NCBI GenBank assembly: GCA_963836235.1 | Contig: CAWIIP010000002.1 | Location: 160,001 to 224,000, forward strand | DNA from: an uncultured Pseudomonadota bacterium | GTDB lineage: Bacteria; Oederibacteriota; Muellerivitia; Muellerivitales; Muellerivitaceae | Reading direction: 5' to 3' | Length of the DNA: 64,000 nucleotides | In this document: piece by piece, positions 3,827 through 16,353 of the stretch | Layout: every line of letters starts with the position of its first letter | Numbering within the stretch: the stretch's first letter is position 1 | The notes under the pieces: model-generated | Databases searched by the model: none | What the model saw: the letters and a program-made list of their open reading frames with translations, nothing else | What the model was told of the DNA's origin: nothing | Position numbers and translations under genes: made by a program

Positions 3827-4663
3827 ATGAAAACAAACCTTAAATTAAAACCGTCCATACAAGCCGTCCTTTATGTACGGGTATCTTCTAAAGAACAAGA
3901 AAAAGGGGGGTTTTCAATCCCCGCCCAATTGAGATTGCTTCGGCAGTACGGGGAAACCCAGGGGTTTACCATTGTTAAAGAATTCCGGGACGTGGAAACC
4001 GCCAAGCAATCCGGCCGGGAGGGGTTTGGGGAGATGGTTAATTTCCTTATCAAGAATACGAACTGCAAATATTTACTGGTCGAAAAGACCGACCGTCTTT
4101 ACCGAAATTTCAAGGATTACGTTTCATTAGAGGATATGGATGTGGAGATCCACCTGGTCAAGGAAGGGTCCATCGTTTCGAATAATTCCAAATCGGCGGA
4201 AAAGTTTATCCATGGGATAAAAGTCTTAATGGCAAAAAATTACATCGATAACCTCTCGGAGGAAACGCGAAAAGGGATGACTGAAAAGGCAGAACAAGGG
4301 ATTTGGCCCTCGTTAGCCCCGGTTGGTTACAAGAATGTTTTGGGAAAAGCCGGGAAAAGAACAATAAAACCTGACTCCCGGTCTGCTCCTCTTGTTATCC
4401 GCCTTTTCAAAACCTATTCATCGGGAAATTATTCCCTAGAAGGGATGGCACGAAAGTTTAAAGGAAAAGGTTTTGTTAGTGCTAAAAGGCCCTTGCACAG
4501 GAGTACCGTCCATAAAATTCTTTCGAACCAAATGTATTCAGGGCATTTCAATTGGAAGGGGAAACTTTACCAGGGGAAATATCCGCCCTTAATATCGGAA
4601 AAATTATGGGAAAAGGTACAAGGAAAATTGAGGACCAGGTGCACAACCAAATTGCAGGTTTAG
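3827..4663 (+). CDS. Serine recombinase (resolvase catalytic domain + Recombinase domain; lacks zinc ribbon/coiled coil)
   Basis: YVRVSS catalytic Ser motif, DRLYR, LSEETRKGM, APVGY, HKILSNQMYSG, YPPLISEKLWEKVQ; stops right after the recombinase domain; RBS GGGAGAGG. Confidence 0.93.
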   Translation: MKTNLKLKPSIQAVLYVRVSSKEQEKGGFSIPAQLRLLRQYGETQGFTIVKEFRDVETAKQSGREGFGEMVNFLIKNTNCKYLLVEKTDRLYRNFKDYVSLEDMDVEIHLVKEGSIVSNNSKSAEKFIHGIKVLMAKNYIDNLSEETRKGMTEKAEQGIWPSLAPVGYKNVLGKAGKRTIKPDSRSAPLVIRLFKTYSSGNYSLEGMARKFKGKGFVSAKRPLHRSTVHKILSNQMYSGHFNWKGKLYQGKYPPLISEKLWEKVQGKLRTRCTTKLQV

Positions 4664-4698
4664 GGCCTTCCACGACCCCAAAAAGGGTCAAGGGGGTC

Positions 4699-4724
4699 GT
4701 CCCCTAGGGGTCCCCATCGTGGAC
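4699..4724. repeat. Palindromic candidate recombination site 1 (GTCCCCTAGGGG-TC-CCCATCGTGGAC)
   Basis: 26-bp imperfect palindrome, one of three direct copies, 35 bp after the recombinase stop. Confidence 0.8.
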
Positions 4725-4735
4725 AAATACCTTTT

Positions 4736-5755
4736 TTAGTCGCCATTCACCTGTTGATAGCGCTTTGTTTTAAGATCAATGCCCCAACTATCTGTAACCC
4801 TTCCCGACCCAGCTCCGGGATTCTGTTCGATATCAATGTAGTAATAATCTTCTTTTATTTTTTTTGAAGTAACTGACTGAATAACATTCAACACATTTTC
4901 AGTTAATATCATTGCTTGGGTAGGCTTTCGGGTATCGATCAAATAGGTTTTGTCGTAAATCATCCAAAGAATTAAAGGGGTATCATTAATTTCCAAGTAG
5001 TAACCCGCCCCGGTAGAATTGTCATTATCCAAGCCTAAGCTTTTAAACCTTTTCTTTAAATCAATATTTTCATCGTCGTCGCCGTCAATATCGTAAACCT
5101 CGGCGAACCTTGAATCTGGAAAAATAATCTTCGCCTTAACGAGGTCTGATGAAAGCTTAACCAAATCTTCCTTGAACGTTATTACGGTTGTGGGTTCGAA
5201 ATCGGTTTCATCATTCAATCCCTTAACTTTCGATTCAGACTCAGTCGAAGCCTGATAAGAATTTTGAAATGCTTGCATCCTTAAAATATCCCTAAATTTC
5301 GGATCGCCTTTAACTTTTGCCTGTAGCGATGGGTCGAATTTCAATGCCAAAACCAACTCACGAATCGCCAAATTTGTGTTTTGTGATGAAAGCCCGTTTT
5401 TGAAAACCCAATAACTCAAAGCTAAATTGTAATGAGCCAGGGAGGATTGCGGATTTAACTTTATTGCTTTTTTATAAGTCTCTTCGGCTAACGCGGGTTG
5501 GTTGTTTCGATAATAGGCATATCCTAAATAGATGAATGCTTTTTCGTTCTTATCATTTAATTCAATTGCACTTTGATAAGTTTTGATCGCCCCTAAGTAA
5601 TTCTTTTCTGATATGTATTTTTTTCCAATAATTAAACATTTTTTATATTCATCGGAAACGCTTCCACTACTTTCCGCCGACAAAAGAGGACAAAGTGGAA
5701 TGAAGAGGCACAAAAATACAAATTGAATTTTAACGTAGTCTTTTTTTCGCGTCAT
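4736..5755 (-). CDS. Secreted TPR-repeat protein (cassette gene 1)
   Basis: Signal peptide, TPR motifs (AFIYLGYAYY, AHYNLALSY); AT-rich; start MTRKK at 5755. Confidence 0.8.
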   Translation of the reverse strand: MTRKKDYVKIQFVFLCLFIPLCPLLSAESSGSVSDEYKKCLIIGKKYISEKNYLGAIKTYQSAIELNDKNEKAFIYLGYAYYRNNQPALAEETYKKAIKLNPQSSLAHYNLALSYWVFKNGLSSQNTNLAIRELVLALKFDPSLQAKVKGDPKFRDILRMQAFQNSYQASTESESKVKGLNDETDFEPTTVITFKEDLVKLSSDLVKAKIIFPDSRFAEVYDIDGDDDENIDLKKRFKSLGLDNDNSTGAGYYLEINDTPLILWMIYDKTYLIDTRKPTQAMILTENVLNVIQSVTSKKIKEDYYYIDIEQNPGAGSGRVTDSWGIDLKTKRYQQVNGD

Positions 5756-5792
5756 AAAATCACTTTTCCTGTAAAACAGCAACCTCTGGGTT

Positions 5793-5818
5793 GTCCACGA
5801 CGGGTCCCCGTCGTGGAC
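5793..5818. repeat. Palindromic candidate recombination site 2 (GTCCACGACGGG-TC-CCCGTCGTGGAC)
   Basis: Perfect 12-bp inverted arms around TC, between the two cassette genes. Confidence 0.85.
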
Positions 5819-5830
5819 AGGTAGAATCAA

Positions 5831-7960
5831 TTATTTAAATGACCCCAGGATATAGGCTTTGAAAAAATCATAGGGGGGATTTCCCTCAGCCCCCGGTGTA
5901 TAGTTCCCGGCCGTGATGCCGCAAACCAGATCCAATTCCGGGACCACGAAAATAAATTGTCCCCCACGGCCGGAGGCATAGAAAACCTTGGTTTTCCTGC
6001 CCTTAAAAGGCATCTGTTCCTCCCACCAGAGGTAGCCGTAATCCCCGCCACCTTGGGTCGTTGCCTGGAGCTTGGTGGATTCTTCCACCCATTTTTCCGA
6101 AACCACTTGTTGGCCGTTCCATTTCCCTTTCTGAAAAAATAATTGGCCCAGCTTGGCCATGTCGCGCGGCTTCAGCCAAAGACTTCCGCCAACCTCGGTT
6201 ACCTGGTGGGGGCCGCTCTTTCCCCAACTATGTTCTTGGATACCAAGGGGATCAAAAAGGTATTTCTGGGCGAATGCCGGTATGGACATTCCACTTTTGC
6301 GGGCAATGATGGCACCCAGAGGTTCCATGCAGGAAGTGCAATAGCCCCAATGCTCCCCGGGGCGGTATTTCGAGGGGAGCGAGAAAACAAAGTCCAGCCA
6401 ATCGGATGTGCCCAACATCTCCCCCATGTAGTCCGATGTCCAACCATCGTTGATCCCGATAGTCATGCTCAGAAGGTGCTTGAGGAGGATCTTGTCTTTT
6501 TGGTCCGTCCAGTCCTTGGCACGGTATTCGGGGAAATAGTCGAAGAGCTTGTTATTCACGTTCACCCAGCCATGGTCCTGGGCGATCCCGAAGAGGATGG
6601 AAAGAACGGATTTGCTGGCAGATTGTAACTGGTGGGTGTCCCCGGGCTCTTCACCCATGAAATACTCGTCTAGGATCAATTTTCCATTTTTGACGACCGA
6701 CAAACCCTCGATGTTTGAAAGACGCCCGTTCAATATCTCATCGATGCCCCTAGCCACTACCTGGGGGTCCAAGGCGCTTTCCAAAAGGTTCCCCACCGGC
6801 CAGCCGTCGGCCAGGGTTTGGGGAAGCTGGTAGCTGTACTCCGTGACAGCCCCGCCGTCCGCGTCCACACGGGGCAGGAGGTAATCCAAGCCTCTTTTAA
6901 AACTGAGGGGGTGGCCGGCTTCATTCCATTGGCCATGGCCGGTCAAGGAATCACCGGCCTCGTTCAGGGTCACGCTCGCTTGGACGAGGCCATTCTCCAG
7001 CAATAAGGTCCGCCCCTTCCGAGTGACATTGAACCAATCGTTCATGCCGTTCCCAAACTGATCCAGGTCGTGGAAATAGGCCAGGTATTTCCCCTTTAGC
7101 TTTTTGATTCCCAGGCAGATCCGTTCGCGGCCGTCCAGCCCATCGACCCTCCCATACCAGTAACCCGTCAATTCCTGGGAAGCCTTCGGTTGTTCGGTTG
7201 GAAGAGTGGCGAAATCACGGTTGAAACTCAAATTGAAATCAAAATCCTTAGATTCCCCCGCCTTCCAAATCCAGGGCTTATCAAGGGATTCACCGTGGCT
7301 CAGGATCACCGAAAGGTTGCTATACCATTCCCATTGCCGGTAGTCCTGGAGGATCGCGGTGAGCCCTGTTCCGGCAAATCGGACCTTGAGCTCCCCATGA
7401 TGGATTGCGGGTCCAAGGGAAAGACCGTCCAGCCCTCCCGTTGCAATCAGGACATTGGAAGTTTTTTTCCATGGGATCTTCCCTTTGCTTTTTGAAAATC
7501 GATAGTCGGTTTCCGACCAGTCGGCGTAGGGAAAAGCAAGGTTTACCCGGGCGGCAATGACCGTGACCGGGCTCAAAGCGGTCATAACCGTATGGATATG
7601 GATTTCCGTTTTTTGGACATCCATGCTGGTCTTGATCCCAACCCTTTCCTTGTCCGTGATCTCGGTGGAACCGTCATAGCTACCTTCCGCATCCCCCGAT
7701 ACGAAGTAATGGTCCTTCCATCCCTCGGTGGAAACGATTGGGAGGACTATGAGCACCTGGCCCTGGGCATCGCCAATGCTGACCGCCCCGTTCCCGTAGG
7801 CCTGGACTTCCAAAGGTCCCAAGAACCGATTGTCCACGGGGGCAGTGGTGGCCGGTTCCGTGACAGGCGGAGGTGGGATCTCATCGTCATCCGCGTAAGC
7901 CCGTCCAACGGCAGTCAGGAGGGCGAGCCCGAGGAAAAACGAATAGATAAGTTTATTCAT
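5831..7960 (-). CDS. Secreted serine hydrolase, class C beta-lactamase-like family, with N-terminal extension (cassette gene 2)
   Basis: Signal peptide; SASK (SxxK), LLSMT, PGEHWGY, RDMAKLG, YGYLWW, GRGGQ motifs. Confidence 0.88.
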   Translation of the reverse strand: MNKLIYSFFLGLALLTAVGRAYADDDEIPPPPVTEPATTAPVDNRFLGPLEVQAYGNGAVSIGDAQGQVLIVLPIVSTEGWKDHYFVSGDAEGSYDGSTEITDKERVGIKTSMDVQKTEIHIHTVMTALSPVTVIAARVNLAFPYADWSETDYRFSKSKGKIPWKKTSNVLIATGGLDGLSLGPAIHHGELKVRFAGTGLTAILQDYRQWEWYSNLSVILSHGESLDKPWIWKAGESKDFDFNLSFNRDFATLPTEQPKASQELTGYWYGRVDGLDGRERICLGIKKLKGKYLAYFHDLDQFGNGMNDWFNVTRKGRTLLLENGLVQASVTLNEAGDSLTGHGQWNEAGHPLSFKRGLDYLLPRVDADGGAVTEYSYQLPQTLADGWPVGNLLESALDPQVVARGIDEILNGRLSNIEGLSVVKNGKLILDEYFMGEEPGDTHQLQSASKSVLSILFGIAQDHGWVNVNNKLFDYFPEYRAKDWTDQKDKILLKHLLSMTIGINDGWTSDYMGEMLGTSDWLDFVFSLPSKYRPGEHWGYCTSCMEPLGAIIARKSGMSIPAFAQKYLFDPLGIQEHSWGKSGPHQVTEVGGSLWLKPRDMAKLGQLFFQKGKWNGQQVVSEKWVEESTKLQATTQGGGDYGYLWWEEQMPFKGRKTKVFYASGRGGQFIFVVPELDLVCGITAGNYTPGAEGNPPYDFFKAYILGSFK

Positions 7961-8009
7961 TTTAGATTTATCAATTGATAGCTCATTCCAGTTTTAATGG
8001 CGTTACCTT

Positions 8010-8035
8010 GTCCATGACGGGTCCCCCAAGGGGAC
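8010..8035. repeat. Palindromic candidate recombination site 3 (GTCCATGACGGG-TC-CCCCAAGGGGAC)
   Basis: Third copy, 49 bp upstream of the hydrolase start codon. Confidence 0.8.
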
Positions 8036-8173: not shown

Positions 8174-8968
8174 TTAACCCTTTGGGCCGACCCATTTCTG
8201 AAACTTGTAACGAGAGTTTGAGGGATTCGAAGGTTCCCCCGTGCTAATCGGGACACGTTTGCAGCCCCTTTTGCGGAACTGTACCCCGACCGTATTTTCA
8301 TGCAAGTGGACACCCCATTTTTCCAGGATTAAATCCCTGACCTGCGTTAGGTTCCAATGGACGGCCTTAATGCCGAATTTTTCCGGGCTGAACTCCAACC
8401 AGCCAACCGTTTCCCGCCACTGTTCTTCCGTTAAGGGTGAAGTCTGCTCCGGGCGTTTCCTTTTCGCCATTTTCCTCCGGAAGGAAGGCGTTCTCCAAAG
8501 TTTTCGAAGCACCTTGCTGCGCCGCCGACGGAAGCTTTTCGTTCCACTAATTCGCCTGGACATTTCCGACATCTCGGCCTTGTAAGTAGGGTCCGACCAT
8601 CTGCCCCGCATATAGACCTGATGTTTCCCCCTCATTTCCCCGGACTTCCACGCCTTTTTCATTCCCTGGACAATTTTTTTCCTAAGCCGCGGGTTCTTCC
8701 ATAGCTTTTTTCCCCTTTTAGAGTTTTTCTTAATTTCATCGGGAGTATGTTTCCGACCGATATTATGGGTGTTTCCGATGTGGATTTTTGAAAGGATTTG
8801 TCTGGTTTCGGGGCTGATAATGGTGCGAATTTTAAAATCTTTTATGTATTCAGCCTGTGTGAGGGAATGTTTGAAAAAAAGATGGGTGTGGCTGATGCTC
8901 CTGAAGGATTTATGGCAGATTTTGCAGTCGATCAAGGGTATTCCAGTCAAGGTTAGATTCACGACCAA
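8174..8968 (-). CDS. Basic DNA-binding protein: C2H2-like zinc finger, NUMOD3-like repeats, IS630-type winged HTH
   Basis: CKIC..HTHLFFKH; GRKHTPDEIKKNS; repeated W-x-x-P basic units; HWNLTQVRDLILEKWGV. Confidence 0.6.
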   Translation of the reverse strand: MVVNLTLTGIPLIDCKICHKSFRSISHTHLFFKHSLTQAEYIKDFKIRTIISPETRQILSKIHIGNTHNIGRKHTPDEIKKNSKRGKKLWKNPRLRKKIVQGMKKAWKSGEMRGKHQVYMRGRWSDPTYKAEMSEMSRRISGTKSFRRRRSKVLRKLWRTPSFRRKMAKRKRPEQTSPLTEEQWRETVGWLEFSPEKFGIKAVHWNLTQVRDLILEKWGVHLHENTVGVQFRKRGCKRVPISTGEPSNPSNSRYKFQKWVGPKG

Positions 8969-8995
8969 CGATGTGGGCGAAGCATGGCGAATAAG

Positions 8996-9571
8996 TCATT
9001 CAGGCTGGCCTTTTCCGAAAGGAACCGCCACAACGGTCCTTTTACTTGATTGGAGAACCCAACCGATTCCTGACTTGTAATAACGGCCCAACCACTGTCG
9101 GATAAGGCCTGGGCTAACTCCGAGCCGTTTTCCGACCTCGTTTACTTTCATCCCCTTCGCAAGCCAGGAAAGCGCCTGTAACTTTTCCTTCACCCAGGGC
9201 CGATCCTCTTTTTCCAAGAAAGATTTAATCTCTTGTGTGTTCATATTTCGTTCTGTGCGAGCGTTGAAATAACCTTTTTGGTTCCAAATCTTTGACAGCG
9301 CATGGAAAGGAATCTTTTGTTCAAGGAGCTTCGCTATTGATGAAAAAGAACCATCAAAAAATACCGAAAGTTTCAGCAGGACATGAACATCCCGTGATCC
9401 TTCCCGCTCCCATCGCTTCCATTCCTCAAGGGTGCATCCACAACTAGCGGCGGCCTGTTTTGGGGATAGGTTCTTTTTCAGCCGAAGTTCCTGGATCACT
9501 TCCCCGATTTTTCGTTCAAACTCTTGGCGGGTCAATATCCCCTTGTCTGGCTTCTTTGATGATGATTTCAC
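8996..9571 (-). CDS. XRE HTH + second (IS630-like) HTH protein
   Basis: IGEVIQELRLKKNLS..WKRWE; KLQALSWLAKGMKVNEVGKRLGVS..IRQWLGRY; paralog at 24615-25223. Confidence 0.7.
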   Translation of the reverse strand: MKSSSKKPDKGILTRQEFERKIGEVIQELRLKKNLSPKQAAASCGCTLEEWKRWEREGSRDVHVLLKLSVFFDGSFSSIAKLLEQKIPFHALSKIWNQKGYFNARTERNMNTQEIKSFLEKEDRPWVKEKLQALSWLAKGMKVNEVGKRLGVSPGLIRQWLGRYYKSGIGWVLQSSKRTVVAVPFGKGQPE

Positions 9572-9574
9572 CGA

Positions 9575-10243
9575 TTATTTATTTTTAAGGAGTTTTTCAA
9601 AGAAATTCTTGGTTTTTGCAACTTCCGCCCTCGCATGAGCAATTGGGGCGGGTTTAACATTAACCTGGTTCCCGATGTTGTCCTCGGGACCGGGTTCTGG
9701 ATCGGGCGTTGAAGGGAAAATCTTCGACTTAAACTTATCCAAAACCTCGGAAAGAGGAAGTATCCGGTCGGATGCCTTTAGTAATTCTGAGGGCTGGGAA
9801 TCCTTGAAAAAACCGATCTCCACGGCTTTGCCTAGTTCCTTCACCGCATTAAGTACCGGTGAGTATTCCGAATCTTCGGTCACTACAATGGCCGTGTCAA
9901 AAAGGCCGCGGGCGGCGAAGTAGACCAAATCTGCCGAAAATATTGTTTTTTCACCCTTTGGTTTAAAGTTTCCATCCGCTCCTGAGACAAGCCGTCCAAG
10001 GCGTAAATCCAGGTAAGGGGTCTTGCGGAGGGAATCAAAAAAGGATTGTTGCGTTTTGGATTGCTCGGTTGCAATGACGGGATCATAGGCGGAATTGTAA
10101 TAATAGGTGCGAACAAGTTCCCGGTCGGGCCCGGCCAGGGCTTTGGAAAGCTCGTAATAGTCCACGCGGGTGGGGTAGTTGTTCCGCTTCAAGGCGAAGT
10201 AGAAGTTGCTACCGTCGATGAAAATACAAACACGGTTCTTCAT
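9575..10243 (-). CDS. NYN (LabA/DUF88) domain protein
   Basis: IFIDGSNFY, LVRTYYY, AIVVTEDSEY..LGKAVE. Confidence 0.9.
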   Translation of the reverse strand: MKNRVCIFIDGSNFYFALKRNNYPTRVDYYELSKALAGPDRELVRTYYYNSAYDPVIATEQSKTQQSFFDSLRKTPYLDLRLGRLVSGADGNFKPKGEKTIFSADLVYFAARGLFDTAIVVTEDSEYSPVLNAVKELGKAVEIGFFKDSQPSELLKASDRILPLSEVLDKFKSKIFPSTPDPEPGPEDNIGNQVNVKPAPIAHARAEVAKTKNFFEKLLKNK

Positions 10244-15700: not shown

Positions 15701-16353
15701 CCGGAATTTCCCAGATGACCTTCTCTGAAAACATTGCCGGGTAATTTGTTTCTCATTATATCGCCCCCCCCCCCCCCGCTTCTTCCATCCGAATCCGGAA
15801 TTTTCCGTCCTGGGCCACTGAAATAAGCCCCAGGAAAAGGTTTCTGTGCCCAAAAAAGCTGAAATTGACCTTCTGGAAAGCCAATTCTCGTTGTGAGCGC
15901 ACACCTATCCTGCGGTAGTCGCTCGGGTTGAAGCCTTGATGCCTTCCTGCGGTTATCGCAGTACTGGCGCTCGCGGCCTTACCATTGCCAGTAGCCGTAT
16001 CCGATTGAGGATTTCAGCAAACAGGCGTCGGGAAACCATCACCTCCGCCATCTGGAAAATAACGTACCGCGAATGACGGATGACATTAGCCCCGATCTTG
16101 ATGAGTTTTTCCCTCAAGGTCGTTAGCGACCAATGTTTCACCAGTTCTGGCAGTGCCAGTCGGCGCAGGAAGTTGCCCAGATTGTAGGCCAGGGCGAATA
16201 GTTGTAAGCGCACTTGGTTGTCCGCGAAGTCGTGGCAGCTTAGTCTTGTCCACTTCATCGCATACTTTCCCTCTTTGATCCACTGCTCAGCCGTGCCTCT
16301 TCCGTTGTAGAATTTCACCACCTGGGGTGCCGGTCGTCGCATGTTCGTTACGA
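15701..16353 (-). mobile_element. IS1380-family element, 3' fragment (transposase C-terminus + right IR)
   Basis: Matches 40526-41177 apart from poly-C length; IR CCGGAATTTCCCAGATG at 15701. Confidence 0.9.

Follow-up and report, generated by a model that had tools for sequence, protein, structure and literature searches.

The window analysed here, a 64-kb stretch of contig CAWIIP010000002.1 (positions 160,001 to 224,000) from an uncultured bacterium, contains a gene for a short serine recombinase, hereafter rec, that is followed by an array of single-gene units separated by palindromic sites with a central TC. We interpret this locus as a part of an integron-like cassette-capture system that is most likely run by rec, and put the probability of this reading at roughly 0.68. 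The source genome (hereafter G000) is 3.97 Mb in 5 contigs. The initial annotation, made from the sequence of the window, had proposed an array of excisable single-gene cassettes captured by a serine recombinase; the arrays found across the genome, the physical link between rec and the site, and the variable platforms described below support this proposal. The features of the locus, with X denoting the primary site of the recombinase platform and C the consensus cassette site, are the following:

3827..4663, plus strand: rec, short serine recombinase gene, 278 aa; Pfam PF00239 (4e-22) and PF07508 (5e-14)
4699..4724, plus strand: site 1, a hybrid; left half GTCCCCTAGGGG, which is half of the platform palindrome X, and right half CCCATCGTGGAC, cassette-type
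4713..5806, minus strand: cassette 1, centre to centre, 1094 bp; single gene at 4736-5755, TPR-repeat protein
5793..5818, plus strand: site 2, consensus cassette site C; perfect 12-2-12 palindrome GTCCACGACGGG-TC-CCCGTCGTGGAC
5807..8023, minus strand: cassette 2, 2217 bp; single gene at 5831-7960, 709 aa
8010..8035, plus strand: site 3, a hybrid; left half GTCCATGACGGG, cassette-type, and right half CCCCAAGGGGAC, from X
8174..10243, minus strand: backbone genes beyond X, encoding a 264-aa open reading frame (ORF), a double helix-turn-helix (HTH) protein (8996-9571) and a NYN-domain protein (9575-10243; Pfam)

The pattern GTCC-N5-GGG-TC-CCC-N5-GGAC matches the 64-kb window three times, always on the plus strand, with 0.08 matches expected (none of 100 shuffled sequences reaches three). 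Site 1, the central TC of which occupies 4711-4712, starts 35 nt past the rec stop codon. Both cassette genes are encoded on the minus strand: the TPR gene has its stop codon 11 nt from site 1 and its start codon 37 nt from site 2; for the gene of cassette 2, the corresponding distances are 12 nt (site 2) and 49 nt (site 3). The GC content is 0.366 in cassette 1, 0.535 in cassette 2, 0.434 in rec and 0.504 in the window overall. Thus, three co-oriented sites with a central TC at 4699, 5793 and 8010, one gene of the same orientation in each interval at precisely these distances, and the contrast in GC content between the two cassettes are all as initially annotated. The description of all three sites as palindromes holds only for site 2, with 12 of the 12 arm positions complementary; sites 1 and 3, with 9/12 and 7/12, are hybrids, and the right half of site 3, when reverse-complemented, matches the left half of site 1 at 11 of the 12 positions. 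The initial annotation of a beta-lactamase-like hydrolase needs a qualification: the product of cassette 2 contains a C-terminal Beta-lactamase-family serine hydrolase domain (Pfam), but with scores of 18-32 bits against the NCBIfam class C beta-lactamase models, the cut-offs of which are 680-882, it is only a distant member of the family.

Comparison with related loci yields an empty and an alternatively occupied platform. The rec gene of L120, a metagenome contig, is 89% identical to that of the window at the protein level and 84% at the DNA level, and 11 nt past its stop codon lies an intact palindrome X (GTCCCCTCAGGG-TC-CCCCTAGGGGAC), followed by a gene with 68% DNA identity to the HTH gene of the window (L120:1461-1972 and window 9054-9571, respectively). 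The gene order in L120 is rec, intact X, HTH gene, and that in the window is rec, a hybrid of the left half of X and the right half of C, two cassettes, the reciprocal hybrid, HTH gene; the window also contains about 0.8 kb more than L120 between the right half of X and the HTH gene (ORF 8174-8968). In L119 (rec 90% identical), the left half of X is joined to a consensus right half and followed by a different first cassette, and homology with the window stops at 4727, 3 nt past site 1. The left half of site 1 is the same as the left half of X in L119, L120 and L121. X and C have in common only the outer GTCC/GGAC and the central GGGTCCCC; therefore, the exchange that gave rise to sites 1 and 3 took place within about 8 bp around the TC, a region too short for RecA, as is typical of site-specific rather than homologous recombination. 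Five further platform copies (four in G042 and one in G018) share the rec 3' end and the left half-site and continue into five unrelated right flanks. Accordingly, a fixed gene content next to rec, which the initial annotation had raised as an alternative, is not observed: the cassettes adjoining rec show no homology among five genomes. X right halves of the CCCAAAAGGAAC type, sought for those platforms that carry the left half GTTCCTTTTGGG, gave only 3 sporadic matches in 5 genomes, so that the split X is documented for the lineage of the window alone.

The link between rec and the site recurs across the short recombinase clade. We collected all short-clade rec genes and 5'-truncated remnants with an available 3' end, 16 altogether, of which ten come from family genomes (the window, G001, G022, G045, one intact copy and three remnants in G042, and a remnant each in G018 and G046) and six from metagenome contigs. 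In 14 of the 16 assessable copies or remnants, a site in the same orientation follows the 3' end by 9-37 nt. Among the family genomes, this is the case for 9 of the 10, at 9-35 nt past the stop codon; the exception is G001, where the left half-site after rec gives way to unrelated sequence, next to a group II intron reverse transcriptase (RT) gene. The 3' end is included in 6 of the 7 short-clade metagenome contigs, and 5 of these 6 carry a same-orientation site 11-37 nt past the stop codon (contig L121 ends inside the site). In the remaining one, L122, the nearest site (1204-1229) is located 112 nt past the stop codon and its centre is inverted (GA, not TC), the sole breach of the same-orientation rule. 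The first site after rec usually combines a non-consensus left half, namely GTTCCTTTTGGG in five copies, GTTCACTTTGGG in two and GTCCCCT..GGG in the lineage of the window, with a consensus right half. Around the full-length relatives of rec, no sites were detected in 149 loci (1.72 Mb). The first site of another G000 array (array B, C1:399377) retains about 40 nt of the rec 3' end, and the rec-site junction motif is present in 10 of the 31 family genomes, four of which lack a short rec.

The only domains that Pfam detects in the protein encoded by rec are the Resolvase catalytic domain and the Recombinase domain (RD); the zinc-ribbon domain PF13408 is not among them. The N-terminal region aligns with the catalytic domains of serine recombinases with solved structures, including the TP901-1 integrase (PDB), and the motif YVRVSS, which contains Ser20, aligns with TP901-1 and 3guv. 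The orthologues in G001, G022, G042 and G045 are 275-281 aa long and 74-81% identical, and all five proteins, that of the window included, end at one point, after which the CxxC zinc-ribbon motif follows directly in a 529-aa G000 paralogue. G000 encodes 2 serine recombinases, only 1 of which adjoins an array. The pairwise dN/dS (ratio of nonsynonymous to synonymous substitution rates) is 0.08-0.16 in the 7 pairs with estimable dS, the other 3 pairs being saturated, which is indicative of purifying selection. A search of a collection of 5.8 billion proteins, limited to proteins of 152-487 aa, returned as the top 19 clusters exclusively two-domain proteins of 275-283 aa with 74-100% identity to rec; from the 20th match on, the identity is at most 61% and many of the proteins contain the zinc ribbon PF13408. 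Of the 80 best tblastn loci in species-representative genomes, those of the four FCPU426 relatives alone are short; another two look short but are truncated by contig ends, and all others extend for another 50-400 residues or so. The identity between rec and its full-length relatives is 50-61%, and the best-scoring named NCBIfam models are CcrB (75 bits, cut-off 900) and CcrA (70 bits, cut-off 700). The shared end point, the low dN/dS and the clade of 275-283-aa proteins jointly indicate that this is a maintained, lineage-specific large serine recombinase that lacks the zinc-ribbon/coiled-coil module. The initial annotation had referred to a minimal serine recombinase; indeed, the zinc ribbon is absent from the 278-aa protein and from all its orthologues.

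The loss of this module is compatible with the dimensions of the site. In the structure of the LI integrase bound to attP, RD and the zinc-ribbon domain (ZD) cover a 25-bp half-site, with an RD helix contacting T10 and T11 and ZD reading base pairs 16-24, or 11-19 in attB, and the coiled coil governs which sites synapse (PMC3783163). By analogy, an enzyme with RD only would be expected to require about 13 bp per half-site and not to discriminate attP from attB, which fits a single site type of the 13-2-13 layout. Immediately upstream of rec, on the same strand, three relatives encode a conserved ORF of about 82 aa without a Pfam match (L011:8483-8731 in G042, L012:8649-9053 in G045 and L010:8732-9058 in G022), with a divergently oriented ArdC-like gene next to it in G042 and G045; this ORF, possibly a partner or regulator of rec, is not found upstream of rec in the window.

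In a set of 93 sites drawn from G000 and 11 related loci, conservation extends over a 28-bp unit, T-GTCCACGACGGG-TC-CCCGTCGTGGAC-A, with T at -1 in 89 of the 93 sites and A at +27 in 90 of the 93; as the sites were picked by core similarity, just these outer T and A are free of selection bias. In the left half, positions 6-9 vary, and the right half shows good conservation; the central TC is invariant, but it was itself a selection criterion. The mean complementarity of the arms is 10.4/12 within chromosomal sites (n=93) and 10.6/12 in the predicted circle junctions (n=62), so that this comparison does not tell the two pairings apart. The promoter-like and terminator-like sites are as numerous as in shuffled sequences, and no promoter was assigned at the platform. 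In the G042, G045, G018 and G046 lineages, a second, small palindrome, TCAGTAnTACTGA, is located between the rec stop codon and the first site (L011:9837-9851 and L012:9907-9921); it has 20 matches in 10 of the 31 family genomes, occurs also before some internal consensus sites, is not present in the lineage of the window, and may be a rec terminator or an accessory binding site.

The array in the window is one of many. The whole G000 genome contains 59 site matches with at most 1 mismatch, compared with 0 and 1 for the reversed-pattern control, and these sites form about 13 clusters, each uniform in orientation, with gene-sized spacing. A dispersed repetitive extragenic palindrome (REP), which the initial annotation had named as an alternative, is not what emerges: the motif is genome-wide but is confined to these same-orientation arrays of gene-sized units. 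The annotated array is real, but the other 12 lack a recombinase gene. Relaxing the definition slightly gives 70 sites and, between them, 48 intervals shorter than 5 kb, the lengths of which are 374-4747 bp (median about 1 kb). Every ORF of at least 60 aa is antisense to the plus orientation of the site in 40 of the 48 intervals (3 intervals are sense, 4 mixed and 1 without an ORF); 30 intervals contain one ORF and 10 contain two, and the median distance from the stop codon to the site is 18 nt. The left half is often abutted by a start codon with an AGGA-type ribosome-binding sequence, so the cassettes appear to be promoterless. Among the predicted cassette products are toxin-antitoxin pairs or components (BrnT/A, HigB/A, TacA/T-like, MazF, PIN/VapB), NHL-repeat proteins, HAD hydrolases, GNAT acetyltransferases, an outer-membrane beta-barrel protein, a LOG-family protein, a sigma-54 activator and a P-type ATPase, along with many ORFs without a Pfam match.

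Several comparisons within and between genomes show that the cassettes are modular and that the break points fall within the site. One NHL-repeat cassette of 1245 bp occurs in two arrays, at C2:1195353-1196598 and C4:57530-58775, with 100% identity; its neighbours differ on both sides, and the identity stops 2-3 nt beyond the sites. A 661-bp BrnT/A cassette has a 91% identical copy in another array and an 82.5% identical copy in G001, with the homology spanning precisely the stretch between two sites. The sites at C1:403316 and C4:855032 have the same right half (A variant) and 108 nt of identical flank but differ in the left half and left flank. On a larger scale, the locus of G001, a member of the same genus, is syntenic except that it lacks a 21-kb segment (C2:1191470-1212880) in which array G lies together with other DNA. 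Intervals of 763 bp that recur between arrays are non-homologous, and we regard their equal length as coincidental.

The exact 26-mer pattern is present in 18 of the 24 other genomes of the same family, with all controls at zero, and is missing from all 16 genomes from nine other families of the phylum; it has no matches in viral contigs either. The sequence of the site is nearly identical across genera. One family member, G003 (99% complete), contains no copies of even the 17-mer half pattern.

From the anatomy of the locus and the established chemistry of serine recombinases, a mechanism can be proposed. The platform would consist of the 278-aa recombinase gene and the primary site X, palindromic over 28 bp around an asymmetric TC at its centre, and the enzyme would derive from a large serine recombinase that lost the zinc-ribbon/coiled-coil domain. 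A circular cassette, promoterless and carrying mostly one gene and one consensus site C, would recombine with X at the central dinucleotide and thus be inserted in a fixed orientation, yielding the hybrid of the left half of X and the right half of C beside rec and the reciprocal hybrid at the far end. Recombination of C with C between direct repeats would excise or shuffle cassettes, the excised circle carrying one site, and such a circle could integrate into X or into any C site. In this scheme, a rec dimer would bind each 28-bp site, two bound sites would synapse, Ser20 would cut at the central TC leaving 2-nt overhangs, and the strands would be religated following subunit rotation; the asymmetric TC would set the orientation of insertion and, without the coiled coil, the reaction should run both ways. 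The same enzyme would service in trans the other 12 or so recombinase-less arrays. The cassette genes would be read through from the backbone operon beyond X: the NYN and HTH genes (8174..10243) run in the same direction as the cassette genes, have homologues near rec in G001 as well and may be a source of such transcription.

Several observations weigh against the involvement of rec. Only 1 of the approximately 13 G000 arrays is adjoined by rec and, apart from the 40 nt or so at C1:399377, tblastn searches with E-values up to 10 revealed no rec remnants at the others. G018, which is 99% complete and contains 59 exact sites, has only a rec fragment, and no short rec was found in G021 (90% complete, 29 sites), G023 (89%, 30), G005 (98%, 25) or G010 (99%, 15). 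Given the near-consensus sites in these genomes, something must keep the sites in the absence of a recombinase gene from the genome bin; conceivably, rec, which is found among genes typical of plasmids or integrative and conjugative elements (ICEs), namely ArdC-like, RadC, PRiA4_ORF3 and DUF6876, was missed by binning. Furthermore, the cassette genes converge on rec, such that a new cassette would enter at the promoter-distal end, unlike the logic of integrons, and the invariant centre GGGTCCCC fits equally well an 8-bp spacer of a tyrosine recombinase. Finally, no circles or deletion joints were detected in 4 soil-metagenome runs from one study, where 0.05-0.19 of the words are present, all as low-coverage contigs, with no RNA run among those retrieved, so that nothing follows on excision or expression. 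Loose ends at 5790/5823 and 5791/5820 in the contigs of these runs turned out to be other copies of the site and not joints.

The foremost alternative, although we consider it unlikely, is that the arrays are built by an unlinked enzyme, for example, a host Xer-type recombinase acting on a dif-like 11-6-11 site in the manner of pdif modules and integrative mobile elements exploiting Xer (IMEX), or by another factor, with rec being only the integrase or resolvase of a plasmid- or ICE-like element that employs X and C sites for its own attachment. Under this scenario, the persistence of arrays and near-consensus sites in genomes without rec and the plasmid/ICE-type neighbourhood of rec would be expected. 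An 11-6-11 layout around an invariant centre fits the 28-bp site, and G000 encodes a single Xer-type protein of about 353 aa, with similar proteins of 353-360 aa in G021, G010, G018 and G023. Like the arrays described here, the pdif modules recombined by XerC/D are small accessory units surrounded by 28-bp sites, and their recombinase may be encoded elsewhere. However, pdif sites alternate in orientation and are located on plasmids, whereas the present sites are direct within an array, chromosomal and tied to a serine recombinase gene. Nor does a tyrosine recombinase adjoin the arrays: no PF00589 match was found in the window locus, all 8 matches in G000 are located at least 5.4 kb from any array, and none of the 31 matches in G021, G023, G010 and G042 (the set analysed without G018) lies within 10 kb of a listed site. 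The lack of the site in G003 implies that it is not the dif site of the family, at odds with an unlinked Xer. Moreover, the segment between the two halves of X is the 3.3-kb pair of cassettes, not the rec-bearing side, and if rec recombines X with C, it is the simplest candidate for the exchange of C with C.

Less probable still, in our assessment, is that the sites are REP- or terminator-like hairpins that travel with genes and function in mRNA stability or transcript punctuation, the mosaicism being due to horizontal transfer and homologous or microhomology recombination without a dedicated recombinase. The consensus site 2, if single-stranded, indeed folds strongly (-23.4 kcal/mol, z = -4.2), and the short distance from stop codons to sites, the homing of group II introns into sites, the retention of sites in genomes lacking rec and the location of the cassette genes of 13/13 arrays on the leading strand as judged by GC skew are all compatible with this explanation. 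REP elements and bacterial interspersed mosaic elements (BIMEs) associated with REP-associated tyrosine transposases (RAYTs) are likewise extragenic palindromes just past stop codons. However, the copies are clustered in about 13 arrays in 4 Mb, and the hybrid sites 1 and 3 fold no better than shuffled sequences (z = +0.64 and -0.23) yet retain the frame of half-site, TC and half-site. The exchange of X with C within about 8 shared bp and the fixed place of a site after rec are not accounted for either, and the central TC is strictly conserved and asymmetric, albeit among sites selected for it. Unlike in RAYT systems, the sites do not flank Y1 transposase genes: from the three G000 genes of this family (PF01797; C2:1842566, C2:2047725 and C5:264042), the nearest site is 10.7 kb away. 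We also rejected a terminator function: no T-tract follows the sites, 0 of the 3 sites in the window were called as terminators, and the terminator-like counts do not exceed those in shuffled sequences.

A classical integron, or a cluster of attC sites lacking integrase (CALIN), with unusually short attC sites and a tyrosine IntI is hardly tenable despite the promoterless, co-oriented single-gene cassettes, the toxin-antitoxin cassettes, the integrase-less arrays and the group II introns, all reminiscent of sedentary integrons, inasmuch as no IntI adjoins the arrays, the nearest G000 tyrosine recombinase scores 38.7 bits against the integron-integrase model TIGR02249 (cut-off 265), and the 28-bp near-perfect palindrome, with its central break point and 5'-GTT...AAC-3' flanks, is the opposite of the attC arrangement RYYYAAC...GTTRRRY.

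The system run by rec, as we favour it, nonetheless shares much with integrons: a recombinase gene located by a primary site that is unlike the cassette sites, short cassettes whose content varies between relatives, many arrays without the enzyme gene, comparable to CALINs, and recombinase genes that are often decayed. The differences are equally pronounced. The attC site is an imperfect palindrome of 57-141 bp, with R''/L''...L'/R' boxes and the crossover at the edge of R', and is recombined as a folded single strand; the site described here is a 28-bp duplex palindrome with break points in the central 8 bp. The enzyme is a serine recombinase rather than the IntI tyrosine recombinase, the cassette genes converge on rec rather than diverging from the integrase with the promoter Pc at the platform, and there are about 13 arrays per genome. 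Thus, the system works like an integron but differs from integrons in enzyme, site and orientation, and so is not one of them.

Compared with the large serine recombinases (A118/LI, TP901-1, phiC31 and Bxb1), rec has the same catalytic domain with the serine nucleophile and RD, and polarity would likewise be set by a non-palindromic central dinucleotide. In place of one attP/attB pair of about 40-50 bp, there is a single 28-bp site type and its variant X, in about 59 copies. The zinc ribbon and the coiled coil, both missing from rec, read the outer half-site and enforce attP-by-attB directionality (PMC3783163). The enzyme is thus kin to the large serine recombinases but without their defining C-terminal module. 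Among other known systems, the SCC elements (SCCmec) are similar in that serine recombinases (Ccr) move tandemly stacking 'cassettes' parted by repeats. SCC elements comprise several genes, among them full-length ccr genes of their own, and integrate at a single site in rlmH, in contrast to the single promoterless genes without a recombinase that occupy many loci here. The length and half-site layout of the 28-bp site resemble those of the crossover sites of small serine recombinases (res site I, hix/gix), which are 26-28 bp long, with 12-13-bp inverted half-sites and a 2-bp centre. However, the small serine recombinases are proteins of about 180-200 aa with a C-terminal HTH, in place of which the 278-aa rec protein has RD (PF07508), and the product here would be cassette gain or loss rather than resolution or inversion. 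Of elements comparable to accessory res II/III sites or a Fis enhancer, just the small palindrome TCAGTAnTACTGA of some lineages was noticed.

In the open full-text literature, outside of which most subscription journals lie, we found no description of single-gene cassette arrays tied to a serine recombinase; within that literature, cassette capture by site-specific recombination has so far been known from integrons, with their tyrosine recombinase and single-stranded attC. The odds, in our estimate, tilt modestly towards a stronger proposition, namely, that this is a second, independently evolved 'integron' in which a domesticated large serine recombinase, reduced to the catalytic domain and RD, moves promoterless cassettes via a 28-bp duplex site without a directionality factor, acting in trans on more than 10 chromosomal arrays, and does so family-wide. 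If rec indeed performs this function, cassette platforms evolved at least twice from unrelated enzymes, and the selective logic of integrons, with enzyme-less arrays, toxin-antitoxin cassettes, decayed recombinases and intron homing, becomes testable in a second system. It would also account for the turnover of accessory genes in a poorly known soil lineage, represented by metagenome-assembled genomes labelled candidate division FCPU426. The rec protein would then represent a natural, minimal serine recombinase that acts reversibly on a 28-bp target, and the 278-aa enzyme with its 28-bp site is a candidate compact tool.

The arrays are associated with several other features. The orientation of the arrays follows the local GC skew in 13/13 cases in G000, with plus-strand sites at negative skew and minus-strand sites at positive skew, which places the cassette genes of all 13 on the presumed leading strand; this match may reflect only a general gene-strand bias, and the 13 arrays do not count as independent cases. 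Two G000 sites are interrupted by group II introns (L100:5546-7493, at C2 ~1476545-1478490, and L106:5033-6980, at C1 ~223032). The two introns are 99.9% identical and occupy the same position in the two palindromes, with the 5' exon ending in ...GGGGACCCA and the 3' exon starting with TCGTGGACA, in the sense orientation of the cassette genes. The RT gene of G001 (L009:7608-8984) lies directly beside the half-site that follows rec. Across these three loci, the RT/maturase ORFs are 436 and 458 aa long, and the domains D1-D4 and D5-D6 are matched in Rfam. These insertions recall the group IIC introns that home into the attC sites of integrons.

A Cas1 gene and an AAA_21/DUF4276 pair are located directly before the first site of array C (L095:1413-4858, at C1 ~429400-432860). 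G000 also encodes six paralogous tyrosine integrases of about 367-386 aa, one of which (C2:1185612-1186715) lies 5.4 kb from array G, by an HTH_17 gene; this suggests several related integrative islands, and none of the six scores as an integron integrase. In the window, the ORFs adjoining the right half of X (8174-9571, minus strand) show a weak similarity to IS630-family transposases (E = 5e-5 and 4.5e-4, far below the cut-off), with one ORF corresponding to the HTH part and the other to the later part; L120 has the HTH gene only. Farther along the window, at 15953-16342 on the minus strand, there is a 129-aa fragment of a DDE_Tnp_1_4 transposase that matches the C-terminal portion of a 459-aa G045 transposase (L012:3202-4581) with 100% identity, and copies of that same length adjoin two other G000 arrays (L093:6134-7513 and L105:7986-9365).

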